Assembly (NCBI GenBank): GCA_008632985.1
Contig: QPGO01000013.1
Coordinates: forward strand, 62,001-126,000
Source of the DNA: Psammoneis japonica
Taxonomy: Eukaryota
Length of the DNA: 64,000 nucleotides
Direction: 5' to 3'
Positions 32,843 through 61,209 of this stretch are shown piece after piece; positions within the stretch are counted from its first letter, which is position 1; each line of letters begins with the position of its first letter. Both the position numbers and the translations under genes were made by a program. The notes below the pieces were generated by a model. It had not been told where the DNA came from. It did no database searches and saw only the letters and a program-made list of their open reading frames with translations.

Positions 32843-33312
32843 GTGATGGGTTGTTTTCGTGAGAGACGAGGGAAAACAAAAAAAAATGACCATCGGCATC
32901 ACATCGGAGGGAGGGTAGTGAAATCTACGTGATTTGTAAACGCGTCGTACAATGAGTACAAGCTCGTACGTCCATTGGATGACGTATTGTCTTATGTCTT
33001 CTATATATCTGAATACTGTATGTTAGAATCTTTCGAATCTTCGTGTGAATCATGACCGAATCTTTCGCCTCTCGCTCTGTGGGTGTAACTCATGCTGGGA
33101 CCATTGCCGCATCCTCCAAAAAACCTCTGCACTTTCTCGCCCTGCGGCTCCATGACAGCACAGCCTTCATCCAAAAGTGCCACCCTGACCCACTGCCAGG
33201 TCTGCCATGGCATCATCATGAGTGTTGCTGTCACCTGCTCTTGTTGTGTCCAGCAGTGTGCTGCCACTGTGCTTTTGTGTGTTTCTCCTCGACACAGCAT
33301 GTTGCTCACATG

Positions 33313-34065
33313 ATGACACAAATTTTCACCCCCCAAACACATGACACTCACCTTTTTCCCCTCAACACCTCTTTGCTGCTGCCCCAGTGCATCCAATGTG
33401 TGTGCATCATTGACCCCACCCAGCGATGTCTTCTCCAGCCCACAGGGGGGCATGCGGCGTGCAGCTCCCAGCAACAGCACCCCCGGCTGCTGCCCCATCA
33501 TCAAGAGAAATGCTGCAGCTCCAGCAAGCAAGACCTCCTGCTGCTGCCTGTGACATTGATCTTTTTTGCCACATGCCATGCATCATGCATGTGCTTCTCT
33601 GCATGACTTTGGCGGCATTTTGCATCGCTTTGCTTTTTTGATGATTCTTGGGTGGCCGCAGAATGTGCTGGTGTGGTGCAGACAGATTTTCAAGAATTGT
33701 GAGCATGAAAGGCAATTGTGCTGCAAACTTGGGCATTCATTTGGATGTTGAAGATTGGCACATTGTTCGTCACTCTGTGCAGCTGAGCAGCTGCAAAACT
33801 TCTTGCTGCTGCTGTTGACAATTGTGAGGAACACTTCCGAGTTGACATGTTTGGTCAGATGAAACATGTGTTCTGCACTTCACACAGGAGGAGGTGAGCA
33901 AATGTCTTCATCCACAAACAAGGAGCTTTGCCCCAAGCTCACATTTTGGTGCTCAGCGAGTGCTGCACAATCAATGCACAATGCACAGCACTGTGGTGGG
34001 CAGAGCTTTCACTCACCATGATGCACAGCTTTTCGGGGGGGGGGGGGGGGTGAAAATTGTGACAT
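33313..34065. repeat. Possible degenerate inverted-repeat pair bounding a ~750-bp non-autonomous element
   Basis: ATGACACAAATTTTCACCCCCC at 33313-33334 versus GGGGGG..GTGAAAATTGTGACAT ending at 34065. No TSD recognisable. Confidence 0.3.
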
Positions 34066-34639
34066 GGGTTGCTTGAAGTCAACACACAGTTGTGTCAACA
34101 TGCTCACTTTGCAAGTTGTGTGGGCTCCACCATGCAGCATGCACTTTTAGCCTGCACGCATCATTTTCTGCTGCAATGAGAGCCCCATGACAAAAGATGT
34201 TGCTGGCATCTGCCACTTCTCATTCTCGTGTGGTGCATGCTGTGCAGTGCACATCATGCTCCCTGCCCATGACAAGGGCCACAGAGTGCCAGAAACATCT
34301 TGCTGACAGCAGAGCACAATCTGCTGCAGATGATTGTGTTTGTCTGTCACTCAGTTGTGGTGTGGGCAGTGTGCCATTGTCATTTCTGTGTGGGGTCAAC
34401 TCACTCTGGCTGGCAGGGTGGGCCTGCACAACTCTGTCAGCTCTCTGCACATTTTGACTTTTGTGTTCTTGCTGGACAAGCATCAGATGTCAATGGCACA
34501 CTGGTCCTCATGCTTGCCATTTTCTTGTTCATTGTTTTTGTTCAGACCAGCTTCTGCTGTGCTTTCTGTCCTGGGTGTGTTTCCACTTGGCTTGATGTGC
34601 TGCATCCAACACAGCACACCTCTGCCACTGAAAAGTGTC

Positions 34640-35560
34640 AGCTGCACTGGGCTTGCTTGTGTGGCAGCATGCACCACAGCTCATGTGTGGCAAATGTGAC
34701 CACTGCAAACACACTGCTCAATGGGGGTCATCCTCATCCAGCTCCATGTCCTGCACTGAAAATGAGTGCATCCTGTTTTCAGTTGTCTGGTGCACATTCA
34801 ACATTCTTTGCTGTGATGGAGCAGTTCACCTGTGGGCTGCACTTGGACATGGGTTTCCTTTGAAGGCTGCAGCCATCCTGTGTTTTTGTTTGACCAATTC
34901 AGCCATGAATTTGAAACCTCTGTTGAAGATTGCCTTTCTTGGTCATGGATGGTGTCTGCATGGCCATGCTTGTGCATTGTGCAGCTGGCACCACAGCTCA
35001 TGTGTGGCAATTGTGATCACTGCAAGCAGCACACCACTCCACAGGCAGGGGTCATCCTCACCCAGCTCCACATCCTGCACCAAAAACAAGTGCATCATGG
35101 TTTCAGTTGTCTGGTGCACATTCTCTGCTGCTGTAGAGTTCACCTGCAGGTTGCACTCAGTTGTGGGTTTCTTTTGAATGCTGCAGCCATCCAGTGTTGT
35201 TTGACCTCTGTGTCAAAGATTGCCTTTCTTGGCCATGGATGTCTGCGTGGCCATGCTTGCACCACAGCTGGCACCATGGCTCATGTGTGGCAAATGCAAC
35301 CACAGCAAAGCACACTGCACTGTGGGGGTCATTCTTGTCCTCCAGCTCCACATCCTGCACCAAAAATGAGTGCATCATGTTTCCATTTGCATGGTGCAAA
35401 TTCTCTGCTGTTAAGTTCCCCTGCAGGTTGCACTTGATTGTGGGTTTCTTTTGAAGGCTGCAGTTGTCCAGTGTTGTTTGACCATCTCAGCCACAAATTT
35501 AATGCCTCTGTTGAAGATTGCCTTTCTTGGCCTTGGACATCTGCGTGGCTGTGCTTGCTT
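34640..35560. repeat. Degenerate tandem repeat, ~3 units of ~280-320 bp
   Basis: Anchor CCAGCTCCA..TCCTGCAC..AAAA at ~34738, 35062 and 35342; GGGTTTC.TTTGAA.GCTGCAG and AAGATTGCCTTTCTTGG each recur three times. Confidence 0.75.
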
Positions 35561-35699
35561 GATGACACTCAACACACAGCATTGGCACACTCAGCAGTGG
35601 CTTCTTCAGCAATCTCAAACCAGCCTTTCACAGGGTCAACTGCTGCAGAGCTTCCCACAGATGTGGGAGTTTCTTTCCTCATCACTTGACATTGCACTC

Positions 35700-37480
35700 C
35701 CATGTCTTGTCTGTGCATGCTGAGGCTTCCCCCATGGGACAATTTCATTTGCTTTTTCTGATGGCAACTTGCTTCCCACACTTTGGTTTTGTCTCTCTTT
35801 GTCTTCTGACACATGATTTGGCTGCATGCTTGGAGCTCTTCTTGTTGGAGCACACTGCAGCTTGCATGCCAGGAGCATGCTGGGCAGAAGCAGTGCCGGG
35901 CAACAAGAAACACCTTCTCAGTTTGTGTCTCTCCAGGATGGAACAACTGGAGACAATGCCAGTCAGTCACCTGCTTCTGCAGTGATGCTGGAACAAAAAT
36001 TTTGACCTCAGCACAAAACAGTTGTCTCATGGACATTTCTCCTCCACAAAAAAGCACACTGGGAGTGCTCCTCCACATGCAAGCTTTCTGCAATGGGCTC
36101 TTGTCCTTGTGCTGCTCCACTTGCAGTTGTTTCATGAAGCTGGTGGGTGCCACTCAGTCATCCACTGCTTGTGCTGTGTGAAGGCCAGGTGAAGAGGGCA
36201 TGCTTTGTGCATTTCCATGGCAGCATCATGGGGTCACACACTTGGAGTCCAAGGGACAGAGTTAGATTGAGACAGCTCAGCTCACAAGCAACCAAATTGT
36301 GGTGGCATTTGGGGCATGTCACAATTCAAGCCTGTGCTGTTTGCACATGGCAAGTGCTGGTGCATTGCACACTTGGTCTTTTGAACATTTTGCAAGTGTG
36401 AGATTTTTGTGACCAGCACAGCATGTGGTCATGAAACAACCAAGAAGCATGGGATCTGAACTCTTTCAGAGGCTCAGCAATGGCACATGATTCTCTCTCT
36501 GCCATTGCACAATTCAACTGAGCACTGTTGCACATTTGGCCATTGTCTGCAACATGCATTTGTGCTTCATGAGAAGAGCAATGAAACAAAAAATAAAACT
36601 TGTGTGTGTGTGTGTGTGTGTGTGATTGAGTCTCCACAGGCCTCCCAACTTTTCAATGGTCAGCCAAGGTGAGAGTCACTGTCATTTGAGTTCTAAGTTG
36701 ATGCTTGTTCATTTTCAGCCACAAATCTGGCACTGGCGCCAAAGCCACCATTTGGGTTGACAGTTGACTTTTCCACTGATCATGGATTTGCAATGTGTTT
36801 CATTTTGTGGCTCAGCTTCTTGATTAGAGTTGATTCATTGCTGGCTTGGGAGAGCTTCAGCTCATTTGCCCATTGCTTGTTTTTTCTGTTTCTGCTGCAC
36901 CCATCTCTTTGTTGCATGAGGCACCACACAAATCAGCCACTGATCTGTTGTTGCAAGACAATGACTTGCCCCTGTCACCACATGAAAAGACACTCCTTTC
37001 AAAACAACAAACTCCTCATGGAACCAAGCCCTTTTTGACAAACAAACCAGCGCAGCTTCAAACTCAAATCCTTTCCACCCATCAAGTGTCAACCTGCACT
37101 TCAAACCCCAAATCACAGTGTCAAGTCATCCCCACAGTGGCTGTGTTGTCATTGAACCTTGTTGTTGTTCATGCTTCCTGCCACAAAATGCTCATCAAAC
37201 CACAATTTGACAAATTCCAGTGTTGGCCCAGATCTCCTGTCAGTGTGGGTCAATCTGTGCCTCATTCAGAGCACCACTTTCAAGCTGTTGATTGACAACA
37301 AATGCACTGCAAATGCTTTTTGGTGGGGTGCCAAGTCATTGGGCCAACATGGCTGCAATTTGGTTTTGAGCCATTCTTTTGGCCCGTGTCTGCGCACTGC
37401 ACACTCTGTTTCATCTGTGGAAGTTGATTTCTGTGGGTGAGAAAGCCAAATCATGTCTGCTGTCCATTCAGCTCTTCCTT
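35700..37480 (-). pseudogene. Heavily decayed Ty3/Gypsy pol relic (RT start, RNase H, integrase zinc-binding region)
   Basis: QLN(Y>C)AMAERES.AI.E.LKEFR (RNase H); KIFVPASLQKQV.DW(Y>H).LQLFHPGETQTE (integrase H2C2); KLP..KA.EI.PW; P(Y>H)QKAF.V. Confidence 0.6.
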
Positions 37481-38289
37481 GTCACTTTGCAAGTGCACCA
37501 GGGTTGTCTCTTTCAGAAGATTGCAGAGGGTCACTTGGATGCTGCACTTGTTGAAGTGCTGGCATCAACTTGCTTGTTGGAGAGAACAAGGGCAAGCATT
37601 CTCCACCCACCCAAGGACTCCAAGACCTGGGCTGCATGAGTGGCAGTTGCAACCAAGGCTTTGGGGACAGAAAACTCATTTGACATTGGGGCTTTGTGCA
37701 AAGGTTGGCATGGACAATTGGTGCCACATTGTGACAGCTGTGTTGTCAACACAAGCTCAGTGCCACAAAGGCTTGCTCAACAACTCACAGCAGGAAAACT
37801 TGACAAAAGGCTGTGAGCCTCCATGAACTGTGTGGGACAAAATCAACAAAGCTTGATTTTGCATTTCTGACTTGCATCCCAGCCAGTCCTCCCATGACAT
37901 CCATTCTTGCTTGAACTTGAGATCAGGGTGAAGTGGAGGGCAGCTTGCCCATTTGTTGCAGCTCTTCATTGCTTCCAACAAAGAGAAACTTCTTGTTTCA
38001 AAAATGCTGCTGGAAATTTCTCCACATTCTTCTCAAGCCATGTCTCTCTGGCATTCCCAGCACACTGCTGCTCACCCACTGCCATTCAGCAATCAACCCT
38101 TTGAATGAGCCACACCCTCCACATCCTGCTCACATGTGCATCATCATGTCTTTGTGACACAGCCCATCATTGTCACATCATCCTGCTGTCTGTGGCAGTG
38201 TCACTCTGCTGTCACCACACCAGCCAACCAGCACTGGTCAAATCTTGAAGAATCTGTGGACCAAAAAGTGCACCTTCCAATCATTCAAC

Positions 38290-39900
38290 CACTGGGATGT
38301 TGGGGTTGGTTGATGACATCATGGGGTCCTTGCTCTCTGGAGTGTGTGAAACTCAAGTCTGCTTGTGTTGGGGACAAGGTGACTTGGGGCCACAACACCA
38401 CAACATCAGCCTTGCAATGCTTGACCACAGTTCTCAACCCTTCAACCACCAGACTTGAGCAATTTGCTTGCTTGCATCACACACGTGTCACAAACAAAAC
38501 ATTTTCAAACATGAACAACAAAAAATTCATGCAGTTTGGTTTTGGAGTGCACATTCATCAAAAATCTGGGGAGCCATTTTCAAAATTTAGAAAGTTCAAT
38601 GTCAACTTTTAACATCAGGTTTTTGCATGCTTCATCTGTGCATGGAGAGGAGCTGAATCTCAAGAACCTTCAACAATGAAAGTTGTGAGGAGTTGCTGTT
38701 GCAAATGGAGCAACAATGCCATGGCACCCTTGGAGCAGCAAATCTCCACCGGTGGAGATTTGCTCCCACACAAGCAAAGGCATCTCTGGAGTGCACTTTG
38801 TGTGCACTGTGGGTTGCACTTGATGACATTTTCAACACTGTGGTGCTCATCATGTCATCACACAAACATGTGAGATGTCACAAATTCCTCAAGCAGCTGG
38901 AGCAACTTGTCTCCACCTTGCTCCCTCAGCCAGAGGAGGGTCAAAGAGTGTTGCCTGCTGGGGTCCACCAGATGCCACTTGTGCCAGGTTTGTTGGCACC
39001 ATCATGGGGTCCTCTCACTCTTGAGTTTGGAGGTTCATTTTTGCCATTGGGGACAAGGTGTGACATGGGGCCACAACACCACAAGATCAGGCCACAGCTC
39101 TTAAAGTGCCACCTGGGGTCCACAGACACAGCCAGTGCAGTTGGCTTGCAGTTGTTGGGTTGGTTGGCACCATCATGTGGTGCTTTCACTGTGGAATTGG
39201 CAAGTTCAAGTCTGCACCTCCTGTTGGAATGAGGTGATGTGGGGCCACAACTGAACAATGCAGGCCTTGCACTGCTGCTCAACCATGGTTGCTGCAGCAT
39301 TGTCCAGGGTCCTCTAGAGACTGCCGGTGCCCTCAGCTTGCTGTTGTCAGGCTGGTTGGTGCCACCATTTGGCCCTTCTTTCACTCTAGCTGGAGTTTGG
39401 AAATTCATGTCTGCTGTTGGGGACAAAGTGTGACATGGGGCTGCAACACCACAAGATGGGCTCATCAACTTTGCAACAGTGTTGCCTGGGGTCTGCAGTG
39501 TCCTCAGCTTGCAGTTGTTGGGTTTGTTGGCTTTGTTGGCCCCACTGCCTTTGGTGCTTTCACTGTGCTGGAGTTGGGAAGCTGGGTCAAGGAGGTGACG
39601 TGGGGCCACAGCCACACAACACAAGTCCAAGCCTTGCACTGCTCAACCATGGCTGGTTGTTGCAGTGTCACCTGGGGCCCACCTTTGGCTTGCTGTTGTC
39701 AGGTTGGTTGGTGCCATCATTGGGTCCTTTCACTGCTGTGGGGAGGTGGGAAATTTAAGTTTGCTGCTGTTGCTGCTGTTGGAGACAAGGTGGCATGGGG
39801 CCACAACACCACAAGATCAATCTTGCAAAGCTCAGCCACAGCTCTTAAAGTGTTGCCTGGGATCCACCAGAGACCACCAGCTCCCTCAGCTGGCAGTTGC
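38290..39900. repeat. Degenerate ~180-bp tandem repeat (further units at ~49470-49830)
   Basis: GGGGACAAGGTG(A/G)C(A/T)TGGGGCCACAACACCACAA-like units near 38370, 39050, 39230, 39420, 39590, 39780, 49535 and 49800. Confidence 0.7.
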
Positions 39901-41202
39901 CTGGGTTGGGTTGGTTGGGTTGGAACATCAGGGTGTGAGGCAGTTTTCACAGGACAGCAAGACAATGTTGCAGTGAATGACACAGTGACGATGGTTGATG
40001 TGGCAAACTTCTTGTGTTCACAACTCATGTTGAGTTGTGGGTCTTGTGCTCAATTTTTAGCTTTTGCACCCAGTTGACATGGCAACAGCAGCAACAGCAA
40101 CAGAGTTGTGTTTGCAATCCATGTGGCAAGCTGGGGATTGGTGAGACTGAGTGTGCGCCAGTCAGCAAGCCATGAAATCCCAGCACAGAAGCCAAAAGGA
40201 GCTGGCTGGGAAGTCACCAAGAATCCAAAGGTGCAACTCATGTCAGCGGATTATTGTGGCAAACAAGCTGGCTGGATGAAGGCAAAGAAACAGTCTCTGG
40301 AAGGCCTTGCAGCAAGGCCAGGAAGCTGTCAAGGGTCTTGTGGTGAAGTTGTGTCATGGGGGAGGATGCAACTGAGCATGGATGCACAAAACATTTTAAG
40401 GAGTGGATGCACAATGCCATTCTTGGGTGCCAAGTCAGGATGAAACAGACAGATGGTCACAGGAAGACCATGAGAAAAACAAGCAAGCATGTTGGAAGAA
40501 TGTTTGAGCCAGAGATGCAGGTGCTCCTGGTGTCTCTGAGGCAGGAGACCTGCTGACTGGAGGAACTGGAGCATCCATCAGGTGCAACCATTTGCACTGG
40601 AGAAGGACAAGGCAATGTTGAGAAAGCAATGCAATCACTGCACAAACCAGGGTGCAATCTACATGACACAGAAGGCAAAGACATTCAAAAAAATTGTGGG
40701 GCAGTGCACAAAGGCCATCCATCACAAGATTGAAGGAGTGACAGAGTTTGTGAGAGTCACGAAGGAGTTGTGGCACTGTTGGGAACTCTCAAGTTGATCT
40801 CATTCAGCAAAAATGGAAGCAGCTGGGCACTCATTCATCAAGATGAAGGAGAGGCACTCAAAGATTGCTGCAGCTGGTCTTTAATTGAGATGACAGAAGG
40901 GTCCCATGGCAGGGTCATCTCAAAAGAAATCACCAAGAAAGCAGATGGGTTCAGCACAGATGCTGATGACACCCAAAAGAAAGAAAGGAGCAAGTTGTCA
41001 GTGGCACTGCCAATGGAGGGCACCAAAGAGCATTGGTGTGTCTTGAAAACCTGCACCAGCAGTGCACACTGGGGATTGATGATTGCTCCAATTCAGCCAA
41101 CAAGGCACTGCAGGTGTTGGGCACATGTGGGACAATCAACAAGACACCTGAGGGTGCAAGTTTTGCACAGAACAAGAAAAAAGAGCTCAAGTGCTGGAGA
41201 TG

Positions 41203-41677
41203 AGTCGAAGCTCGCATGTCCACGCAAGCTCCGAGTGCCTTCCTAACGCATCGACTGGATGTCCACTCCAGATCGACACCTCAGGCAGAACACAAGCAGG
41301 TGGAATCTACTGATGAGCGGTGACGAGCATTTGGTCTTTCACCAAAGTGCCAGTGACCAAATTGTGAGCTGCCTAGACTGAATCTGCTGAGTGCACCCAA
41401 ACAGAGGTTGATCCGCAGGTTTGCACCAGTGGCCAGTGCAAACTTCAGGGTTGACCACATTCACAACAATCACCCAAATGCTGCTGAACCAATCTGTGGT
41501 TGGTCCAACATCTGTGCAAAGCCTGTGATCTCCAAAGCACCGCCCATGATCCCCAAAGCATTCGGCTTGAGAAGAATCAAGTCTACGTGGCGCGAAAAGA
41601 ATTTCAATGAGAATTCCGACTGACGGAAGTACAGACACAACAGAGAATCTGGGTCGGTGGACAGACGAACCACGACT
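41203..41677 (-). repeat. 3' LTR (475 bp)
   Basis: Direct repeat of 48522-48993; ends AGTCG...CGACT. Confidence 0.92.
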
Positions 41678-41823
41678 CTCCCTCTCATTCACAGATTCCA
41701 GCAACCAACAAGAAAATCGCAAACGAGAAAGCTCACACAATTGGCACAAGTTCAGAGCAAAGCTCCTGCATCTTGACCGAGCCACAACATGCAACAAACA
41801 AAGGAAGCGATGCTTCCAAAGCA

Positions 41824-44800
41824 CTGCCACCCCTGGACCTTCAACCGGTTGTTCTCGAAGAGCTCTCGAGTCAAAGGCTTGGCAAGACAATCGGCGAGTT
41901 GCTCGGCCGATTCCACCTTGATCGTGTCAAACTCATCACAATGCGACCAGAACCAATGCCACTTGACGAGAAAATGCTTGGTGCAATTGGTGATGCGGTG
42001 GTTGGCAGCCAGGCAGCAAGCGCCTTGATTGTCTTTGAACATGCGCGCACGAACCGAAGTCCTGAGATCTTGGGAGATGTCTGGGGTAAAGACGATCTCA
42101 AGGAGCAGGTTCTTCAAAGGCAGGAGAGTCCAAAGAGCACAGGAGGTGGCTTGACACTTGGCTTCGAGGGTGGAGCAAGAAACAGCTGACTGGAGCTGCG
42201 ATTTCCACACCAAAGGGCATCCACTGAGAGTTGTGATGCATCCGGTGTGAGACCTCACAGAATTCGGATCAGAATCCGCTTCGCAGCGACAGAGACCAGC
42301 AAAATCGGCGTCGACCCATAAATCAAGATCCAAACGACCGGGTGGAGATGGCAGCATCCCCTGATCACGCATCCTCTTCAAGCAGCGGACCAGAGTCTTG
42401 ACGGCGGTGGCGCGCGACTGTTTCGGGTTGGAATTGAAGTGTGCAACCTGACTGACGGCAAGGGAAATGTCAGGACGGGCATTGGTGGACAAACACAGGA
42501 GCACTCCAATGATGGAGGGATGACTCCAGTCCTCCTGCATGGGATCTCTGTCTGCATCAGTGCCGAGGGCTTGGGACGCTGTGGGGAGCAGGTTCGGTTT
42601 GCTGTCAACCAAGCCGGCAGCTGACAGGATCTTGTCAATCAACCCTTTCTGCATCAACTTGACAGCACCGTCATCTCTCCTTTCGAACTTGACACCCAGG
42701 AACTCGGTGAAGCCACCCTCCTTCATCAATTCAAATCCTTTCTCGCGCAGCTGAAACATCAACTGATCAATGGTGGACTCCTGCGCTGCACTGATTCCAC
42801 AATCGTCGACATGCAGGCAGACCATGCAATCATGGTGGAGCAGGAGACATTGGCTGCACTCGCTTTAGATGAAACCCAAGTCCAAGAAGGCTTGCAGACA
42901 ATGTTCGTGCCACAACTTTGGAGCCGAAGAGAGTCCACAGAGACTCTTGACGAGCTTGAGACAAGCCTTGGGTCCTTTTGTCGAACTGAAACCTCGTGGA
43001 AGATGAGTCCAAACTGGTTCTTCCACGGGAAGTGCTGCTTGAACGAATGTGGACTGGAAATCGGCGGATGCCGTGTGCCATCCAAGAATGAGACTCAATG
43101 CCAAAAACACTTGAACCGCACTCCAGGCCACAACCGGTGCATGAGTGTCAAACAGACTTCCTTCCTGCAGATCGCCGCGACAACAGTGGCGAGCCTTGCA
43201 CTTCTTGATCTCGCCTGAAGGTGATCGTTTGCGACAAAACACCCAAGCACCGGGAAGGATCTTGGTTTGAGCATCGGCTGCAGGTGCCTCGACCCACGTT
43301 CCTTGATGGACAAGTGCAGCAATCTCGATCTCAGCCACTTTCAACCACTTGTCGCGATCGGAAGAGCACATGGCCTCGTCCCACGATGGCGCACCCGGAT
43401 CCTTGACTTCATGCGCCGACGCCTCACATGCGGCAGGAGTGGTCATGGATGTGTTGCAACCATGGTCAAATTTGTGTGCATGATGGAAATCAATGAAGTG
43501 GGGCAAGCATCCGTGTCCCTGAGATCCATCACATCCAAACCGCTGGGGTGCAGCACGATTCCGGGTAGAGCGACGAACTGGGGTTGGAGAGGGGCGTTGT
43601 GCGCTGGGTGGAGCCACAGGGGGCGACTCCCTCTCTTGACCAAGATCCGAAGAAAGGCTTCGAGGGGTGGGAGGCTCCCTCTGAGGACTTGGTGACACAT
43701 TTGAGTTGGCAGCGGGTGCTCTCTCCCTCTGAGGCGAGTCTGAAGCCACGGGTTCAGGAGGAGACTCTAAAGGAGGCACAGACTCCACCTCAGGGATCGG
43801 AGGTTCCACAACAGGACTCGAGGGGGCCTCGGGAGAAGATGCTGGTGCCTGAGCAGCCGGAGGAGGGACCTGCAAGGGTTTGGGAGGCGACCGGCGGGTG
43901 ACGGTTTTGCGGATTTCCTCGGATCGGCGCTCACATTCTTGGTGTTCTTGACGGATGTCAACATCAGCATGCTCTTCATCATCCACAGTGTGTTGACACA
44001 CACTGTCTCCGAAAAGAGACGGCAGGCAACGAGCTGGCATTGGCAGGAACCGTCGCAAACCAATCATCAAAAACGACATGGAATTGTGGAGTGATGGCTC
44101 CCATTTCAAGACTCAAGACTAGCGGGGCTGACGAGGCATGCTCGGGGCTGAGTCCCACACAGACATGCCGACTCGCGCGGGGTTTCCACTTTGGCAGTTT
44201 CTTTCCATTGGCAAGAGCTTTGTCAAGAACGTAAACAGGGCACCCCCAAACATGACAATCCTGGAACCGAGAGTGAGGGTTGCATGTCTGGGTGAACACA
44301 TCCTGTGGACTTAGACCCGCAGATGGGTCTGGCATCGCGTCACAAAGCATGACAGCATGATCCACAGCCAAAGGCCAAAGAGCAGCGTCCGCAACATCAG
44401 GCCAATGGATTGCCGCATGCAACATCACACTTCTCGCGATCGACATCGCAGTGTGCATTGCTCGTTCACAAACCCCATTGTGATGGTGAGCTCCTGCACC
44501 GGCATGCTTTGAAGCTTGAGCAAAAGATTCCAAGTGAACCCTGAAATTGGCCGACGTGAACGCCTTTCCATTGTCGCTCAGACATTCTTGGGGAATGATG
44601 CCATGGTCACGACAATGGGCCTCAAACGCGTTCTTGGCCGTCAAAGTTTCATGGGCGTTGAGGTGAGTTTGATGTTGAACGTTGATGCAACCAGATGCAT
44701 GATCCACAAAGATTGCTCCGCCTGAATGCTGATGTTTTATGCTCTCCTTTCCAAAAGCATGTTTCAGGCGACCACGAGTGGAACAAACAAAATGATCAAC

Positions 44801-47800
44801 CGACACTCGTTGACCAGGGAACAGTTGGTCCTTCTTTAAAGCTCCAGCTCGATCCTTGACGACACGAGAAGTCTTTCCGGGGCTGGGACGGCGTTTTTGT
44901 TTTCCATGTTGGCATGCGGCACAAAGGAGCAGACGATCGATACGGCAAGCGCGTTCATGCAAACGACGGGTGCCCTCGGAGTGGGGTGGAACTCCCGTGC
45001 GCATCAAAAATTGCACCTTTCGAAAGCTCAGATGCCCGAGACGAAAGTGCCAATGTAGTGGCTCCTTTTCAGCAGGTGAGACATTGTGATTGTGTTCCAC
45101 AATCGTCGACAACGTCAAATGAAACTCCTCACAAATTTGTTGACTTGCTTGATTCGCGCAGGCCCATGCCACCGGCAGGTTAGTTGAAGGTTCAATCAAC
45201 ACTTCAACACCTCGGCTGTGTCCTTGTTCGCGATTCTTGGATCCACTGAGGATGGTGCAGTCCGACAGCAGCTCGATGGACTCATCCGAGTGTGTCTGCA
45301 AGAGACTTGTCGTGCTCAAGAGATGAGCCTTGGACTTGGGGACACAGTGGGCCGGAACCTTCAGGGTCCGAAGCACCCCAGTGACATCAACAAAAGACCA
45401 AGCGACATGTCCAACACCTGCCACATGGAGCCCCTTTGCGATGCCTTGGAGCCGGACAGTGACAGGTGGTTTCTCGAGAGGCCCGACGAAGTCGTCCTTG
45501 CAAGGTGAGACCGATGCACTTGCTCCTGAGTCCCAAATGACCGGGAAAGCATGCTCTTCAACCACTTCCTTTGTCTCCTCAGGACTTGCAAACGCCGCCT
45601 TGAGAGCACCAGCAACAGAAAGTAGAGGTGACGGGACGTCAGCATTGGCAAGATGAGCCTTGGCTGCTGGGGAGCAGACAGCGTCAAGCTGGGAGCGCGT
45701 CAAACCGTGCGCAACGTTCGAACCAACAGGGCGACACGTGGGTGCATTGAGGTTCCAACGACCTTGATGACGAACATCGGGACCCCGTTTTAGAGCAGCA
45801 CTCTTGCAACGTCTGGTGCCCTTGGGACGACCGACTTCTCCCTCTTGACCGAGGAGAGGACGTGCGCGCATGAAGGTGAGTGACCGCTCGAAGGCCTTGA
45901 CCTCTTCACTGAGGTCGTGCAACTGATTGCGCTGCTGCTGCTTGATGTCAGGCGCCCCACGGGCACGTTGGACGAGAGAGGGATGCCTGGGTGGAGTGCG
46001 GCGGCGTCCGCAGCGAGGCTGAAGCTCCCGCAGGTGACGACGCCCCCAACGTTTGCAATGCTTGGAGAACCTGGGTCCTTGGCGTGTGGCCCAGCGGGGA
46101 GGAGGGGGTGGAGGAGGAGCACGCAGGGCTTCGGCACGAGCATCACGCTCAAACTTAGATGGCAAGAATGCAGCCACTAGAAGGAGAAGGAACCAGAGAG
46201 CGGGCAAAGGATGGAGACGCCAATGTGACGAGACGTGCGACGCAACGACCGTCACGAGCCAGACCATGGCGTTGACTCCAACAATCCACCAGTCGGCCGG
46301 AAGCTGGGAATGCCAATGTCCCAAGGCAGCATGGAGCAGCAGAGATGCAAAAGGGTGGAGCAAGGTGAGTGCAACCTGAAACAGTCCAAGCAGCACGTCC
46401 TTGAACCCTGGCTCAAAGTCGAATTCCGCGTGCCACGCTCCAGGATCCAGGAAGAGGGTGTTGGCCTGCTGAGTCGGCGCAGGAGGTGACTCATCCTTCT
46501 GCCCATGCCTGGCAGTGCCGTGAGTGGTCGACCAACGATGGCACTTGGCACACCAGTGCCAAGTCTTGCCCTGAGCAACCTTGGACTCAGGTTGTCCGGG
46601 ACGAGGCGCGACCTTCTTCCAGTTGCGCGCGATGCCACCATCACCATTGCCTCCGTTGCCACCTTGACTCCCATTGCCACCGGAGCGGGTCCTGCCCCTT
46701 CCTCCTTGTCCTCCACTGTTTTGTCCAGGGTTGGAGCCGCCCAGGTTGTTGTCAGTGCCCTCGCTGGACTTGTTGGGACAGTCACGTGCCCAGCGTCCGA
46801 GCTTGCCGCAGTTGTTGCACGGAGAGTTTTCCGGAGTCTTCTTGCGGGGAGCAGCCGTCTGCTGGAAGAGAGCATTGAACTGGGCCTGAGTGAGTGGAAC
46901 TCCAACCGTTTGACAAGTGGCTGAGGGATCAAGTGCCAGGTTTCCAAAGGCTCTGGGAGCGGCTTTGGAGTCTGTCGCGTGCTTGACAGGATCCCACTGC
47001 GTGTTGTTCTTGAACAAGCGGCAGCGGTCCAGGATCTTTCCAATGACTTGAGAGTGGGTAAGGTTCTTGGACGCAAGGTGTCGTTTTGCGTCCGTTTTGG
47101 ACTTGCACGCTATCTCAACAAGTGCTTCGCTCAAGTTCTCTTTCATGGTGCGAAGGGCGTGCTTGAACTGCTGACCGTTTTCGCCATCCCCGCCAGCTTC
47201 CAGGCAAGCGTTGACCAAGGCAAGCACCAGCTTGTGGTTGCACTGACCCGCAACATCTAACTCTTGGGCCGCAGTCTTGAACTTGGACAGGAGCTGGGAG
47301 AGATCCTGACCGGCAAACTGGGAGGGCTGGAGTTCCTCCAGCTGCTTTTTGAGCTGCTTGAAGCGTTCGATGGACGTGCTCTGGAGGATCACGATGAGAG
47401 CCATCCAGACTTTTGGAAAGCAATCCAACTCTTCCATCTCCAGATCCAGCTGTGCGGCCAGGCTAGCCTCCAAGGAGTTCTTGAGAAACTCAGCAGCGTC
47501 CCTGTCATTGGATGAATCGTGGGAGTCACACTTGGCGAGTTGAGGTGCGACAAGACGGGCGACGCTTGATTTGGAATGCCGAGGATGTCCTTCAACGCAA
47601 GACGTCACGGAAGTTGAGTCCTCGGGGTCCTGCAGGTAAGTTGCCGCATCCAAACTGCAGTCCTTGAGATGCTTCATCACGTTCTTCTCAAAGGTTGCAA
47701 GATCTCCCTTCTTGTCGAACTTGGTTGAAAGTCTGGCAACGTGGCAGGCCTTGCTCTTCTGGGTGGAAGAAACGTGGTGGGAGCGACACTGATTTGGAGA

Positions 47801-48187
47801 CGTTGGACTGGAGTTGGGAGTTTCCAATCCAGACCAGTCAGCCTTGGGTTTCCCACTGGTCCAAGCAACTTTCTCAGTGGAACCAATGGCGACAACCCCC
47901 CCATCTTAGGAGCCTTGGGTTTGTAGACTTTCGTCTTTGGCATCGCCGCGGCTGCCATGGCAGCCACAGCCTGAACAGTGCGACGTTCGTCTTCCGTCAT
48001 GCCAGAGCCTGCAGCGGGCTCGTCATCATCATCGTCCGAGTCGTCATCCGAATCGTCCGGGTGATGTTCCAAGGGCGGAACAGGGTCGTCGTCTGGGTTG
48101 TTGGGGTCCTGAGGTGGTGGATTATCCTCCGGTGGAGGTTGGTCCTCAGGAGGCTGGTCCTCGAACACTTCGGGGTCGTCAGCCATG
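41824..48187 (-). pseudogene. Copia gag-pol polyprotein broken into 4 ORFs
   Basis: Zn knuckle CNNCGKLGRWARDC, WHWCAKCHRWSTTH, protease IWDSGAS, integrase WH.RLGH/CAACQ.GK/VSVDHF/SDNG/NGVCER/WGCPVYVL, RT KAR..CRGD.Q/(Y>H)APVV/KSL(Y>C)GL/(Y>H)VDD, RNase H WVDADFAG/STLEA/QLAD..KPL. Confidence 0.92.
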
Positions 48188-48521
48188 TCCGACAGCGCGC
48201 TTGAAGCCATCAAGTAAAACCAATCGTCTGGGACATTCTCAATCAAAGAGTGTGAGCTCAGAGAACTCTCTTGGGTCTCAGGAGGGCCACGGGGTGGAGC
48301 AGGGCCTGAGATGGTGCATGTGCAAAATCAACAACAAACCTTCTGGCGGAACCAGCTGTTCAGCTGACGGAGTCAGTCACAGCACTTGATGTCAAGAGCG
48401 TGGAGCACAGCCAATGAGGAGCGCTGACGGCATCAGAGCCGTTGATGGGGTTGCTCTGGTTTGGGCATCCCCAACCGGAAGCGCAGAACGTGTTAAGTCA
48501 CCCCAATTGGGTGAACTGACC

Positions 48522-48993
48522 AGTCGAAGCTCGCGTGTCCACGCAAGCTCCGAGTGCCTTCCTGACGTGTCGACTGGATGTCCACTCCAGATCGACACCT
48601 CAGGCAGAATGCAAGCAGATGGAATCCACTGACGAGTGGCAACGAGCATTTGGTCTTTCACAAAAGTGCCAGTGACCAAATTGCAAGCTGCCTAGACTGA
48701 ATCTGCTGAGTGCACCCAAACAGAGGTTGATCCGCAGGTTTGCACTGGTGGCCAGCGCAAACTTCAGGGTTGACCACATTCACAACAATCATCCAAATGC
48801 TGCTGAACCAATCTGTGGTTGGTCCAACATCTGTGCAAAGCCTGTGATCTCCAAAGCACCGCCTATGATCCCCAAAGCATTCGGCTTGAGAATCAAGTCG
48901 ACGTGGCGCGAAAAGAATTTCAATGAGAATTCCGACTGATGGAAGCACAGACACAACAGAGAATCTGGGTCGGTGGACAGACGAACCACGACC
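48522..48993 (-). repeat. 5' LTR (472 bp)
   Basis: Direct repeat of 41203-41677 with one 3-bp indel and ~18 substituted sites. Confidence 0.92.
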
Positions 48994-50310
48994 AGATGTG
49001 ACAAGGTTGGCCATGTGAAAAGGAAGGACTGGCCTTTGCTCAATGATGATCACGTGTTGGTGGAGTCAGATGTTGTCAGCCATCATGGGGGTTAACAAGG
49101 CAGTTGACATGGTGTTGGGTTGCATGGTGCTGCCCAACTGTTGTCCTCCTTCAGTTGGCGCACATGAGCCCAGTCAACTGATGGCTCATGCAAAGGAGTT
49201 GGTTGGAACATCAGAGTGCAAGGCAGTTTTTGCAGGACAGACATGCAATGTTGCATGGAATGATGCACTGATGATTGTTGATGACACGGTGAATTTACAT
49301 TCACAGCTCATGTTGAGTTGTGGGTCTTGGGCTCCATTTTTAGTTTCTGCACCCAGCTGGCATGGTGACAGCAGTGACAGCAACAGAAACATGTCTGCAA
49401 TCCATGTGGTGAGTCAGGGATTGGTGAGACCAAGCATGTGCCAGTTGGCAAGCCACAAAATCCCAACAGGTTGGCACCATCATGAGGCCACTTCCCTGCA
49501 AAGTTCAGAAGTTCAAGTCTGCATCAATCTGCTGGGAACAAGGTGACATGGGGTCCTTTCATCCTGGAGTTGGGAGTTTGAAGTGTGCTTGTTCTGGCTG
49601 GGAGGACATGCCAGGTTGCCACAACTGAGCAACACCACCCTTGCACTGCTCAACCACAGCTCTTAAAGTGTCACTTGGGGTCCTCCAGAGATCACCAGTG
49701 CCCTCATCCTGCTGTTGTTGGTCTGGTTGGTGGTGCCATCATGGGGCCCCTTCACTCTTAATTTGGGGGTTCAGGTCTGCTTCATGACCTGTCATGGACA
49801 AAAACAGCATGGGACCACAACAGCGCATGATTGCATTGGCACAGGCAGCTGCTTGTTGGGGAGGAGGAACATTGGCAGGAGGTTGCAGTGCCACCATGTC
49901 TCTGGGAGCTCCTGCTGTGCTCCTGGCCATTTGCACACCAGGCACACATCCAGCACCACCATGGGCACACTGACCCAATGGACCTCTTGCTTGACCAACT
50001 CCATGACCACCTTGTGCATGACCACATTGTCCATGACCACCTGCACAACCAACTCCATGACCTCTTCTAGCCTGCTGCCCCTGCAAGTTTCAACCATGAT
50101 GAGAGTGCAACCGCAACAAAGGTTGTGCACATGATGTGGATTGGCTGGAACAAAGATCAGCCTGCAACAGCAGCCCCATAGATGCAAGCTGAGCAACCAA
50201 CTGGCCACATGGATCAGCACAAATGCAAAAATTTCATTGTTGACAAGAGCCACTTGAGATCCTAAAAACTGAGACATCAGTCATTTTTGAACACAGATGC
50301 ACTGAGCTGA

Positions 50311-50803
50311 AAACTTCTCTGCTGTTTTCTGCCAGGGATTGCTGTTGCATCTCACAATGAAAAGCTGTGTCACAGAAACTAACTCTCTTTGAAACACAAT
50401 GACTGGAACATGATGTGATGCAGCCTGCTGGAGCACCAACATGCAAGACAGGCTGTGAGAGACAATGGGGCAACAGCTTGAAGAATGGAGGAAGCAAAGG
50501 CAGTGAAGTGACAGCACTGGATGCAGGTGAGCAGAAACAGCAGCATTGTGCCTTGTTTGCCAAACAAAACATGCCACCAAATTGAAACCTTCTCTGCTGT
50601 CTTCTGCCAGGGATTGCTGTTGCATCTCACAATGAAAAGCTGTGTCACAAAAACTGACTCTTTTTGAAACACAATGACTGGAGAACATGATGTGATGATG
50701 CAGCCTGCCAGAACACCAAGATGCAAGACAGACTGTGAGAGACAGTGGGGCAACAGCTTGAAGAACAGAGTTGGCAAAGGCAGCAAAGTGACAGCATGGG
50801 ATG
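50311..50803. repeat. Direct duplication of ~215 bp (50311-50523 and 50585-50803)
   Basis: CTTCTCTGCTGT.TTCTGCCAGGGATTGCTGTTGCATCTCACAATGAAAAGCTGTGTCACA occurs twice. Differences include TA/TG and TG/CA swaps. Confidence 0.85.
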
Positions 50804-52863
50804 AGAGCATGTGCCACATGTTGAACACTGCCAGGGCAGAAAGCAAACATTGTTGGACACCAAAATTGCAAAATGCACACCAACCAACAAATGAACAAAT
50901 TAAATTGTTGGCATGCTCCAGCCAATGAACAACAACACTTGACAAGATTTCCCACTGGAAAATGTCCAGCAAGCTGCACACCACCATTGGGAGGCATTGC
51001 ATTTCTCCCCACAAAAAATGGAAAGTGCAAAGGCAGCTTTCTGGATGCGAAGTCAAGGTGCATGTGGTGGCATCCCATGCTCAGATCCAGGGATGTTGCC
51101 AGCATTGGAGCCCTTCAAGTTTCAGGAGCAACATGTCCTGGGCATGGCATTTTGCATTGTCCATTTATTTTTGGCCACTGGAAGTCATTGACAAGCCACA
51201 CCATCTGGTCTTTCTTTGTCATTGTGAAGAGCAGAGCTGCCAACCCCAATCTGTTCATGTGTTTTAAAATGCCAACATCAAACAATCATTTTGCCTCAGT
51301 TGTCAACAAGGTTTGCTCACAAGACCTTGGAATCTTGTGCAGCCTGGCATCATGTGGCTCAAGAACAGTGTCCTTGAGCTGAGTGTGGCAGGGGTCACCC
51401 TTTGACTCACCTGAAGTGCTGTCAAACAATGGCTCTTGCTTTTTAAGAATGGCAAGCAGCCAATTTTTTCTGCTGAAATGTGTCCAAACTTTTTTTTGGC
51501 ATTTTCAGCAACCTGTGGCAAGTCTTCCACTTGGGGGGCTTGGCATCCAGGATGGACATGATTTGCTTGCTGTCCCTTTTGGCTCTTAGATGCAGAGCAT
51601 TGTTTTGCTTGCAGCACATCCATGTTTGTCATCAGCATGATCTGGCCAATGACTGTCAGCTGTTCAATGGTTTTTGGTTTAAAAAACAGACAGATTGTCA
51701 ATTCTGCAAGTCTCCAAGCTGGTCATTGTGCAAATGGACTGCATGTTCTCCAGGGCAATTGTTGTGCACATCCTTTCTGGAAGCTTTGATTTGAATCTTG
51801 CAGTGCTTGTTGCTTGCTGGGAATGAGCTGTCAACTGTGCTCCAGCTGGTCTCAGCAGCATTTTTCTGCCCTTTTCTTGCAGTGCCTTCCATCCTTTGCT
51901 GGTGTGCCACTGGCTCTGCTGTCCACCAAAGCTTTGCTTGTTTTTGTTTTGCCTTTTTTGCCACACATGTGGATTTCAAGGCTGTGAACAGCACCGGTGC
52001 TGCATGTTGTTGCTTGCACCATTTTTGTGAGTGTGCTGCAAGAACACAGTGTGATTGAAACTTCTTGGTTGAGCACCAAGACAAGCACTGGTGCGGCAAA
52101 CATGTTCTAGACTGTCATGTTGGCCTGCACCTCAGGCACAACAACTGCTGTTGAGCTCACATTCAGAATCACCAAAGAAGCATCTCAAATTCCTTGTGTT
52201 CCTTGGCAACTTTCTTGTGCTTGGTTTTCTTCATCTAGAGCACTTTCTTGGCTGCTGCACTGATGACTGCACTCAATGTTCTTGATTGTCTTTTTTCTTT
52301 TGCTTGACTCTGTTCACAATTGAGAATGCCTGGTCTTCATCTTCTTGACCTGGTGCTTCAAACTTCAGCACTTTTCAGTCACGTGTCTGCACACTTGATG
52401 CCATGCAATGTGCATGATCTGGCATTTCACTTGCTGTTTGTGATGAGCAATGTGGGGTTGGTCATTTCTGAGTTGGCACATGTCATGCACACACTCACCC
52501 CAAGCTCATCTTGGTGCTCAGCAAATGATGCACAACATGCAACATTGCACGTGGCACCTTTGTTCATCACAGGCATGACTTTGGGTGGCAGCAAAATGCA
52601 TCACGACAAGGTTGACACACAAGTGTGACAACATGCCCGCTCAGCAAAATGAGTGCAAGTTGTGTTGGCTTTGCAATGTGCACTTTTGGGTTGCACATCT
52701 CTTGCTGTGAGAGCTCCATGACACAAGACATTGCAGGCATTTGCTGGTTGTCAGTGTGGTGGTGCTTGCATCACTGCCCTTTTTCTCTCCACCACCATGC
52801 ACCATGACACCACCCTCCCACATCCATGCACATTGGCTCAAATGCCCCCATGAGAGAAACCTG

Positions 52864-53597
52864 TGATGCAAACTCTGGCCAGAGGAACCACTCTCAATGC
52901 TGACACTGAAGCAAACCACACCATGCTCAACTCTGCTGCTCACACTGCCAGCCTTCACTCCGGTGATTCCCCTGCCCCTTTGGCAGCCACTGCTGTGGCT
53001 GATGCCAGCTCCTTTGTGTCAGCCACTGTTGGCCACCATTCTCTGGCCCCCGCTGCTTCTCGAGCGTCATTCATGATCCCCACCCTGCTGCTGATGCCAT
53101 TCCTGACCCCCACTTTCTGCTTTTGCATCAAAGTCAACCACCCTCCCAAAAACCATGGTGAACTCAATCCTGGCATTGTTTGCATCATGATCACGTTGGA
53201 GCACTGTGCTGCCTTTTCTGAGAGAGAGGCCTCTGATGCAAACTCCCACCAGAGATCCCACTCTCAATGCTGACACTGAAGCAAACCACACCATGCTCAA
53301 CTCCACTGCCCACACTGCCAGCCTTCACTCCAATGGCTCCTCCGCCCCTTTGGCAGCCACTGCTGTGACTGATGCCAGCTCCTTTCTTGTGTCGGCCGCC
53401 TTTCGCCACCATTCTCTGGCCCACTGATTCTCGAGTGTTATTCATGATCCCCACTCTCCTGCTGACACCATTCCTGACCCCCGCTTTCTGCTTTTGCATC
53501 AAGGTTAACCACACTCCCAAAAACCATGGTGAACTCAATCCCGGCATTGTTTGCAACATTCTCATGATCACGTTCGAGCACTGTGCTGCCTTTTCTG
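52864..53597. repeat. Tandem duplication of ~360 bp (52864-53220 and 53234-53597)
   Basis: CACTCTCAATGCTGACACTGAAGCAAACCACACCATGCTCAACTC...GAGCACTGTGCTGCCTTTTCTGA occurs twice. Confidence 0.9.
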
Positions 53598-53765
53598 AAG
53601 CGATGCACTGCCAGCAGCTAAAATTCACATAGAGAGGGGAACGCATCGTGATTTGTGACACATTATGAAATGCTGAAAGGAATAAAATTATTTTAAAATG
53701 CAACATGCATGCATGCTTATGAACGACTCTTTTTCGGACTTCTCATCAACTCCAGCCGCATCATT

Positions 53766-55169
53766 TTACGGTGAGTCCCGAAGGACGTTTATTGCAGCAT
53801 TCACAATGTCCGCAGAAGAGGCAGCAGTTAAACCCTGCTGAGTAGCGCCTGCTTGGTATAGGCTAAGTGGATTTGGGTTTCCCATCAAGTTCTTGGAATA
53901 TAGCATAGGGTATCCTAGGGACGACGACCGAAATGGGTTTGCCAGATTTGTATTTTGAGGGACACGAAGCGAGCTGGGGTTCAAATTTTGATCAAGCGCA
54001 GCCAGACCAGATGGACAGTTAACCACGGGCTGGCATTCCGCGAGAGGACTAGCCCCCAATGAAGCGTTATCGCGGATGAGGCTTTCCAGCAGAATGCGCT
54101 TTCTTCGCTCTTGTTCGTCTAATACGGGAAACATATATACAGAATCAATGCCTCGTTTTCCTGACTGTAATCCGAGTTGCAGGTCCTCATGGCTTTCGAT
54201 GGGATCGGTCTTGCGGCTGCTGACAGCAGTGGATGATCGCATCTTCGCAATGAGGGCCTCGTTGTCGCGCTGAAAGAACTCGTTCCCGAAAACAATCGGA
54301 TCATCAGGGCCGAGGCCTCGGTTGATTTGACGAAAGCCCCACCTATATAGCTTTCTGGTGTAGCTGGAGAACTTACAGGCCTTGAAGAACTTGACTAGAA
54401 CCTTTCGCGTGAAGACTTCAGGGTTACGAATCACGAACGACTTGCCATCGGGAAGCCATCCGATACAGAATTCTTCGCCTTTCTCTTCTTGTTTGTCCGC
54501 ATATTTCATCATACTCATGAGCTGTTGAACACAGTGGGGAGGGGTAAAGTGGGAATAATGTAAGTTTCGAAGAGCAAAAAGGGAATACCAACACGTATTA
54601 AACCAACGACCGAACCGCCTTTGATCGAAGAAATCAAAAATCTCGGAATTCAAACTTGGAAGAAATGTCATATCTACAGAGTATATCAGTGGACAGTATA
54701 GGCCAGAAAGTCATTTGAAAGCAATAAATGGATGATATTATGGAAATGCGTTGACATGATGCCCATAAGTACTCTGACACGGAAGAAAAGACATGACAGT
54801 TCCTCCTCGACAACACGTGCAAGTTTTCTCCAGTACTAACTCGTCGTAGAAGCTACGCCAGTCCTGCGATTTTGCACGTACCTTCTCGGGAAAAGTGATC
54901 GCCGCATCGGGCTTCTTGTAGCTCGGAATGTGCCTCTTGACCACCGTCTTTGCACTCTCTGAACTCTCTGATTTCCCATAATCCCCCTCTTTTGGTAGAC
55001 GTATATGATTCTCGGGCTTTTCTCCTACGTTTGACGTGGGAGAATGGCTTGACTCCGAGTCGCTGTCACCAAGGGAGGTCAGGGCGCTCGCAGCTTCCAT
55101 TATGCTACGCATCTTCTCCTTATTTCCATCCGTAACCTCTGAAGATTGTTTAGAATCGGGTTCCGTCAT
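53766..55169 (-). CDS. Heat shock transcription factor (HSF DNA-binding domain); intron ~54522-54881
   Basis: TFPEK|LMSMM...IGWLPDGKSFVIRNP...KFFKACKFSSYTRKLYRWGFRQ...FFQRD. Confidence 0.9.
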
Positions 55170-61085: not shown

Positions 61086-61209
61086 TGTCGTGCAAGTCAC
61101 AACTTATGACTCAACCGTGCCTTGTGATCTCGTCTAAACTTCGCAACAATTCGTTGTCTCACAATTTCAGCAACCGCTAAAACACGACACAACTAACTCA
61201 AATATAATC

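Follow-up and report, generated by a model that had tools for sequence, protein, structure and literature searches.

Contig QPGO01000013.1 of the diatom Psammoneis japonica (assembly GCA_008632985.1) contains two islands in which the dinucleotide TpA (TA) is nearly missing. Both lie in the 64,000-nucleotide stretch analyzed here (positions 62,001 to 126,000, forward strand), which is called the window below and is numbered from its first nucleotide. The larger island (33087–53618) holds a Ty1/copia long terminal repeat (LTR) retrotransposon, whereas the smaller one (4408–6169) is filled by an open frame for a DUF7869 protein. Which process erases TpA from such DNA and leaves the adjacent host genes with normal TA? 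Our analysis points to a likely answer, namely a DNA-level hypermutation in the diatom nucleus that converts TpA to TpG or CpA (A:T→G:C) in integrated mobile or repeated DNA. We infer that this process serves as genome defense.

Two islands of TpA depletion

The main island (20,532 bp) contains 73 TA dinucleotides, compared with 860.6 predicted from the density in its flanks. TA thus stands at 0.08 of flank density, meaning that about 92% is gone. Shuffling the island 200 times at the mononucleotide level gave a mean of 1217 TA and a minimum of 1153. The observed/expected (o/e) ratio of TpA in 1-kb bins was 0.00–0.13 throughout bins 34001–52001, 0.12 in bin 33001, and 0.35 in bin 53001, as compared with 0.27–1.15 in the flanks. 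On the left edge, TA occurs every 10 to 50 bp as far as position 33086, and the next one is found only at 34148; on the right edge, lone TAs at 53439 and 53506 are followed by dense TA from 53619 onward. The second, separate island has 3.4 TA/kb versus 41.9 TA/kb in its flanks, with edges at 4407/4408 and 6169/6170. The window has 29 TA-free runs that exceed 250 bp, every one of which falls within 33087–53439 or 4408–5823, and the lowest TA o/e of any 500-bp window outside both islands is 0.26.

An initial annotation of this DNA, based on the sequence, had claimed that TA nearly vanishes across the main block and at 4.4–6.2 kb, with normal flanks, and had called for sliding-window calculations of TpA and CpG o/e. 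Run within the 64-kb window, these calculations limit the depletion to the two islands, and the bins, edges, and shuffles together bear out the claim. The depletion is confirmed as real and is very unlikely to be due to chance.

TG and CA rise where TA is lost, each reaching about 108 per kb in the main island, as compared with 71.5 (TG) and 69.7 (CA) per kb in the flanks. The rise is strand-symmetric (107.9 TG/kb versus 108.4 CA/kb), in line with the earlier proposal that both dinucleotides are strand outcomes of a single change at TpA. The sum of TA, CG, TG, and CA amounts to 222–250 per kb in every compartment and to 236.5 per kb in related elements; because this sum changes little, TA and CG were evidently swapped for TG and CA by transitions. 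The dinucleotides AA and TT remain at 0.82 and 0.91 of flank density, respectively.

Polarity, timing, and sequence context of the change

The Ty1/copia element (CoDi-like; 7,791 bp, 41203–48993, minus strand) has 4.4 TA/kb and 53.8 CpG/kb. It is bounded by a 5-bp target-site duplication, AGATG, at 41198–41202 and 48994–48998, and by two LTRs which, in element orientation, are the 3′ LTR (41203–41677) and the 5′ LTR (48522–48993), both on the minus strand. Between these lie, on the same strand, an open frame of 1308 codons (43979–47905) for gag, a zinc knuckle, a protease region, and integrase, with 2 Tyr among its 1308 residues, and a reverse transcriptase (RVT_2) with downstream sequence (41752–44112) in two frames, 42865–44112 and 41752–42864. 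The Pfam domains gag-pre-integrase and RVT_2 were found, and the LTRs, the 5-bp duplication, and the order gag, integrase, RVT_2 are those of a copia element. Its relatives are diatom copia elements (best identity 64%), those with names coming from Fragilaria crotonensis and Cylindrotheca closterium. The element is nested within older repeated DNA (33087–41197 and 48999–53618). One in-frame TGA (42865–42867) gives GFI*SE where relatives have LGFKQS, and one frameshift lies between the integrase and reverse transcriptase frames, at about 43979–44112. The catalytic motif of the reverse transcriptase reads CLHVDD, with HVDD in place of YVDD. Judging from this motif, other missense changes, the frameshift, and the TGA, the copy is dead.

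The second island is occupied by an open frame of 546 codons on the minus strand (4393–6033) without a single Tyr, which encodes a putative DNA-transposon protein with DUF7869. Since its 16 relatives in databases sit on short contigs, and some of them within large clusters, it looks like a repeated, transposon-like gene. Tyr accounts for 2.6 to 5.7% of residues in these 16 homologues.

The direction of the change was read from conserved protein positions. The three copia frames were aligned to 30 full-length homologues, and columns conserved at a level of at least 70% were considered. Of 734 such columns, 127 were altered, with a strong bias toward Tyr: 19 of 21 conserved Tyr were changed (12 to Cys, 6 to His, 1 to Phe) and 2 kept, versus 108 changes among 713 non-Tyr columns (Fisher p = 1.6e-13). 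Sorted by mutational step, the changes comprise 36 single TA→TG/CA steps, 26 CpG→TpG/CpA steps, 38 other single steps, and 27 changes needing several steps. The non-Tyr changes of the TA type are as expected, being Thr→Ala, Ile/Met→Val, and Asn→Asp where the preceding codon ends in T, as well as Leu→Pro from CTA and Val→Ala from GTA. In the DUF7869 protein, none of 15 conserved Tyr was kept (7 His, 6 Cys, 1 Trp, 1 Phe), as compared with 69 altered among 206 other conserved columns (p = 2e-7). Conserved Tyr has hence become Cys or His at 18 of 21 copia positions and at 13 of 15 positions of the DUF7869 protein, and the split in copia (12 Cys, 6 His) again shows both strand outcomes. The direction TA→TG/CA, previously read from single motifs, is borne out by this polarization in two unrelated elements, and the motif changes themselves were recovered: CLHVDD, KSLCGL (for KSLYGL), the integrase motif HSGGAIFVDHASGC, PGAW, and KEPL.

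One reading to be considered was that these families natively lack TA and Tyr, which the initial annotation had named as an observation that would overturn its proposal. Among the 120 copia homologues listed, Tyr averages 2.5% with a minimum of 1.55%, and 80 copia relatives from metagenomes have a TA o/e of 0.34–0.84, none being TA-depleted. A native TA- and Tyr-poor composition was rejected, since Tyr and TA are at normal levels in the homologues and relatives, and since HVDD replaces the catalytic motif of the reverse transcriptase. The metagenome set serves as a control for the native state and not as a survey, one of the two search patterns having required Tyr and hence being biased against depleted copies. 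Some of these relatives have a CpG o/e down to 0.11 without loss of TA; for five loci (L029, L023, L027, L061, and L040), CpG o/e is 0.11–0.34 and TpA is normal at 0.39–0.50, and their hosts appear to methylate transposable elements (TEs) without TpA hypermutation.

Conversion of TA to TG or CA creates no in-frame stop and removes TAA and TAG, so that frames of 1308 and 546 codons are still open in dead elements. Such Tyr-free "ghost" open reading frames (ORFs) persist, and gene callers would annotate them as proteins.

At the moment of integration, an element has two identical LTRs, and differences between them record what happened afterward. Over 475 aligned columns, the pair differs at five adjacent doubles, with TG in one LTR and CA in the other. 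At 4 further sites, TA stands against TG or CA, and at 5 sites CG stands against TG or CA; the remaining differences are 3 other transitions, 2 transversions, and 3 gap columns. Both LTRs have retained TA at a single site and CG at 18. Given that about 11% of CpG was changed per LTR copy, double CpG hits are expected to yield only about 0.1 discordant site, and the TG-versus-CA doubles must therefore derive from TA. Because the LTRs of one insertion show independent TG and CA outcomes, the change took place after integration and in each copy separately, in agreement with the earlier proposal that the process acts on integrated DNA.

Assuming that concordant conversions were as many as discordant ones, the ancestral LTR had about 15 TA sites, of which about 80% were converted per copy, whereas other sites have diverged by about 0.6% per copy. 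From these values, we infer that, per target, TpA conversion runs more than 100 times faster than background mutation and about 14 times faster than CpG decay. Based on the substitution rate of 4.77e-10 given for Phaeodactylum tricornutum in the consulted part of its mutation-accumulation study (PMC6604790), the time-averaged rate would be about 1e-7 per TpA per generation, a rough value, given that it was derived from 475 bp with a substitution rate taken from another species. The divergence of LTRs is inflated by the process, and insertion dating based on LTRs is biased accordingly.

The TAs that remain are not random with respect to their 3′ neighbor. Relative to flank density, TA survives at 0.30, 0.053, and 0.008 when TAY (Y, pyrimidine) is present on zero, one, and two strands, respectively (chi-square p = 2.5e-21). 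A model with independent strands, in which the hazard of each strand depends on its own 3′ base, gives an expected value of 0.049 for the one-strand class (observed, 0.053). When applied to copia with the 80 relatives as baseline, the same model predicts 0.092, as compared with 0.115 observed. Fitting four hazards by 3′ base gave 0.36 for A, 0.88 for G, 2.20 for C, and 2.46 for T (likelihood ratio 98.9, 3 degrees of freedom), meaning that survival is ordered by the 3′ base and that conversion prefers TAT ~ TAC >> TAG > TAA.

Sequencing check, independent replicate, and surrounding DNA

Contigs from a sequencing run, X1, match 34035–36587, 36635–37646, 37629–38462, 39060–39813, and 40731–41175 with 0 differences, covering about 5 kb of the main island. 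Their k-mer depth is about 58–73 (about 58 in the flanks), and one contig spans the left edge; based on this depth and contiguity, the reads of X1 are considered accurate. Where X1 maps other copies, these differ from the window at 813 transition places and 179 transversion places, and at no single site do TG and CA calls conflict. In the 1-kb host flank at 32034–33012, 18 differences between X1 and the window are listed, versus none in the roughly 5 kb of adjoining island; this contrast may reflect allelic divergence in the flank next to a hemizygous or identical island.

When 1.84 billion representative proteins were searched with the integrase part, 143 new relatives were obtained, whose median Tyr content was 2.56%. 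One outlier, P0284, has 1 Tyr in 2061 residues, as does its cluster mate P0402 (likewise 2061 aa), and the two are encoded on two metagenome contigs in ENA, of 8476 and 8372 bp. Both keep 0 of the 21 conserved Tyr (P0284, 12 Cys and 6 His; P0402, 14 Cys and 4 His), as compared with 17 of 21 in a normal control, P0260. P0284 and P0402 differ at 27 of 2061 residues. Thirteen of these differences are Cys/His, which is a two-nucleotide change, and the others are 4 Glu/Lys, 4 Ile/Val, 2 Leu/Pro, and 1 each of Ala/Val, Leu/Ser, Ala/Thr, and Pro/Ser; on a codon-table reading, TpA conversion could account for the kind of difference seen at 26 of the 27 residues. As far as protein sequences can tell, P0284 and P0402 would represent an independent replicate of the TpA footprint. 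P0336 (2 Tyr in 774 residues) was not counted, being without the Cys/His pattern, and P0323 is a partial sequence only.

The older host repeats around copia comprise a left part (33087–41197; TA 2.5/kb, CpG 3.9/kb) and a right part (48999–53618; TA 4.1/kb, CpG 5.8/kb). The two are akin to each other, with 39918–40185 matching 49201–49468. They contain internal repeat units of about 280–370 bp and about 1.4–1.5 kb, and Tandem Repeats Finder reported a single array (34926–35483). A Pfam scan of these outer 12.7 kb found no domain at gathering score in 36 ORFs. The whole block had been described as TEs, a label that is borne out for copia (41203–48993) only, none of the 36 ORFs in the outer 12.7 kb having a Pfam TE domain.

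In the outer repeats, CpG is also lost, its o/e being 0.02–0.10 in 34–41 kb and 49–53 kb (34228–41202 and 48999–52960), as compared with 0.55–0.84 inside copia; in the left part, CpG is essentially absent from 34228 onward. This loss, with its gain of TpG and CpA, is limited to the outer repeats. The copia and DUF7869 elements have lost TA and kept CpG (53.8/kb and 48.2/kb), which indicates that TA loss and CpG decay are separable and that TA loss is the faster of the two. Evidently, a slower, separate CpG→TpG/CpA decay overlies TpA loss in the outer repeats. Neither this decay nor the influence of the 3′ base on TA survival had been noticed in the initial annotation. When 8 old repeat pairs were compared, 61 TG-versus-CA doubles were counted, together with 174 adjacent doubles of other kinds resulting from poor alignment; the outcome is supportive but too noisy to carry weight.

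The depth of run X1 identifies 38.3–49 kb as multi-copy (up to 2235), whereas 33.0–36.3 kb stands at 64–89 versus about 58 in the flanks, counted at a likeness of at least 85%, so that diverged copies escape. Given that 33.0–36.3 kb is near single copy, targeting may be independent of repetition. The leftmost 1.1 kb (33087–34227), where TA is lost but CpG persists at moderate density and the depth in X1 is close to that of a single copy, may constitute a third component, either younger or unmethylated.

Host genes border the main island on both sides, a GDA1/CD39 nucleoside phosphatase gene on the left (30856–32387, minus strand; TA o/e 0.60) and an HSF-type DNA-binding gene on the right (53766–54671, minus strand; TA o/e 0.62). 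An ABCF gene (16229–17308) has best matches of up to 71% identity, and those of its matches that carry an organism name are all from diatoms; in a protein atlas, the gene matched bacterial clusters only, which came without taxonomy. The window further encodes an LHC/FCP protein and histidinol dehydrogenase, among other host proteins. TA o/e of the host genes is 0.34–0.62. The lowest genic values (0.34–0.36) belong to an AlgH-like gene (58862–60670; 9 Tyr in 602 residues) and the LHC/FCP gene (61138–61845), both with normal CpG and Tyr, and look like ordinary codon bias rather than the island signature.

Mechanism and known systems

The data show a DNA-level conversion that acts after integration, on each strand and copy independently, that halts within about 100 bp of the neighboring host genes, that outpaces CpG decay, and that prefers 5′-TAY-3′ over TAG over TAA. 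Its speed would also be well above that of background mutation, and elements would be killed by missense changes (loss of Tyr, such as YVDD→HVDD) without any in-frame stops being made. In chemical terms, adenine at 5′-TA on either strand of marked (silenced) chromatin would be deaminated to hypoxanthine and fixed as G at the next replication. We prefer this chemistry because it is a one-step reaction, because the strands are hit independently, and because the same interpretation has been put forward for the chlorarachniophyte Bigelowiella natans, in which integrated viruses undergo TpA hypermutation; even so, we give enzymatic adenine deamination an even chance.

The footprint is symmetric, TAY on one strand being RTA (R, purine) on the other, and attacks on A and on T look alike in the sequence. 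The data would fit equally well if the thymine in 5′-RTA-3′ were modified or oxidized by a TET/JBP-type enzyme to 5-hydroxymethyl- or 5-formyluracil, leading to T→C changes. Chemically, 5-formyluracil mispairs with G, and dinoflagellates are rich in 5-hydroxymethyluracil. Nothing found here, however, supports thymine modification in diatoms, and in B. natans, the sole experimental precedent, the consulted part of the preprint reads the process as adenine deamination, also without proof (10.64898/2026.01.13.699255). We regard a thymine-centered reaction as unlikely. A passive effect of chromatin, through error-prone synthesis (Pol-eta-like, WA→WG) or missing mismatch repair in heterochromatin, would explain why the islands lie in repeat and TE DNA and why their older part is CpG-poor, like methylated DNA. 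The initial annotation had offered the Pol-eta-like option, which is disfavored by the dinucleotide data: it is TA and not WA that is affected, with AA at 0.82, TT at 0.91, and TA at 0.08 of flank density. Moreover, the LTRs hold 5 substitutions outside TA and CpG beside 9 TA-derived sites, and the process in B. natans is, according to the consulted preprint text, on in some lines and off in others. A passive origin is therefore very improbable.

Two other explanations place the change outside genomic DNA. If transcripts were hyperedited from A to I by an ADAR-like enzyme and then reverse-transcribed into DNA, the preference for a 5′ T would be accounted for, since ADAR favors a 5′ U according to the consulted part of the B. 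natans preprint (10.64898/2026.01.13.699255). But the LTRs, identical at integration, now differ in their TG and CA outcomes, a DNA-transposon-type ORF and noncoding repeats are hit equally, and strand asymmetry is lacking, all of which makes this route extremely unlikely. The other is an artifact, a modified base in TE DNA being misread as G or C during sequencing or assembly. The platforms of the assembly and of X1 are off record, and X1 may come from the same sample, which leaves this explanation some room. Against it stand the X1 contigs, which at about 58–73x match about 5 kb of the island with 0 differences, and the fact that a base misread on both strands would leave the reads at one site split between TG and CA. 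The signature also recurs in the unrelated ENA-derived proteins P0284 and P0402. An artifact has hardly any probability left.

Several observations weigh against targeted TpA hypermutation by a dedicated enzyme, or narrow its scope. All 80 metagenome relatives (gathered with two patterns, one of which required Tyr) are TA-normal, so that the process is not general in diatoms. The consulted part of the P. tricornutum mutation-accumulation study describes a GC→AT bias and mentions no such TpA hotspot (PMC6604790). The rate ratios derive from the 475-bp LTR only and assume as many concordant as discordant conversions; surviving TAs may include new ones, and their baseline is flank DNA or relatives rather than the true ancestor. 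The library type of X1 is off record, and the run may represent the assembly's own sample, meaning that it does not provide independent proof. Also, as the symmetry of TAY and RTA implies, the attacked base could be either partner of the pair. As noted in the initial annotation, no candidate enzyme gene is visible in the window: none of 55 flank ORFs scanned (from 66 ORFs of at least 120 aa plus ones scanned earlier) has a deaminase or polymerase domain.

Like fungal repeat-induced point mutation (RIP), the hypermutation seen here takes place after integration, in a dinucleotide context, and inactivates mobile DNA. RIP, however, changes C to T (mainly CpA→TpA), makes TpA and stops, and lowers GC, whereas in the present case TA is lost, stops are not created, and GC increases; with TA at 0.08 of flank density and a 1308-codon frame still open, the creation of TpA and stops by C→T at CpA is not what is found. 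Deamination of 5-methylcytosine likewise yields TpG and CpA and acts on silenced TEs, as seen in the outer repeats (CpG 3.9–5.8/kb versus 53.6), but CpG decay cannot cause loss of TpA. The earlier statement that neither RIP nor methylcytosine decay can give the TA loss thus stands, with the addition that CpG decay overlies the outer repeats. Hyperediting by ADAR and hypermutation by APOBEC3 resemble the present case as deaminase-type editing of selfish elements; these act on RNA or nascent cDNA, before integration and with strand bias, whereas here the change is made after integration, is symmetric, and includes DNA other than retroelements. TadA and ADAT2 share the A→I chemistry and a target A preceded by T or U, and the UAC context of their native anticodon loop resembles TAY. 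To our knowledge, ADAT2 is universal in eukaryotes, and its presence would hence not explain a lineage-restricted process. In the consulted text of the B. natans preprint, an ADAT2-like candidate is proposed and a reported DNA activity of amphioxus BjADAT2 is cited (10.64898/2026.01.13.699255).

A full-text literature search gave no report of such TpA hypermutation in diatoms, in agreement with the initial annotation, and its sole match was the B. natans preprint. We know of no targeted A:T→G:C hypermutation of genomic DNA from before that preprint, which dates from 2026. According to the consulted part of it, the two viral regions integrated in the genome, an NCLDV (nucleocytoplasmic large DNA virus) and a virophage, had 231 mutations in mutation-accumulation lines, of which 230 were A→G or T→C, all these transitions falling on TpA (Mettrop et al., 10.64898/2026.01.13.699255). 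The rate was about 6e-7 per site per generation, or about 1000-fold over background, with only some lines active, and predicted coding sequences depleted of TpA were enriched in reverse-transcriptase and DDE domains (10.64898/2026.01.13.699255). The words diatom, stramenopile, and CpG do not occur in the consulted preprint text (10.64898/2026.01.13.699255).

Now that the footprint is seen in another lineage, one that is distant from B. natans and ecologically dominant, phylogenetic profiling can be used to find the enzyme; genomes with TpA-erased TEs would be contrasted with those without, such as the hosts of the relatives sampled here and probably P. tricornutum. Any candidate would have to account for the order TAY > TAG > TAA, strand independence, a speed greater than that of CpG decay, and sharp edges. 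It is tentatively conceivable, though we would bet against it, that diatoms and chlorarachniophytes share an ancient DNA-editing immune system spread across stramenopiles, alveolates, and Rhizaria (SAR), in which a chromatin- or RNA-guided adenine deaminase acts at 5′-TAY on double-stranded DNA. If true, this would be a SAR-wide editor that outpaces methylcytosine decay and kills invaders by missense alone, in other words a natural adenine base editor of double-stranded DNA, which would be of interest to genome engineers.

The comparison with B. natans rests on the consulted part of the preprint. The sequence-level features described there recur here: A:T→G:C change specific to TpA, giving TpG or CpA depending on the strand, confined to discrete islands of foreign DNA with normal flanks, at a local rate far above background. 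The differences are that P. japonica is a stramenopile, whereas B. natans belongs to Rhizaria; that a near-saturated historical footprint is seen here and de novo events there; and that the targets are an LTR retrotransposon, a DUF7869 element, and noncoding repeats instead of viruses. The preference for the 3′ base and the superimposed CpG decay were found here and are not mentioned for B. natans in that text. Whether both organisms use the same system is, by analogy, an evenly balanced question. The same signature has already been published for B. natans, and as far as our literature search shows, it is described here for the first time in diatoms.

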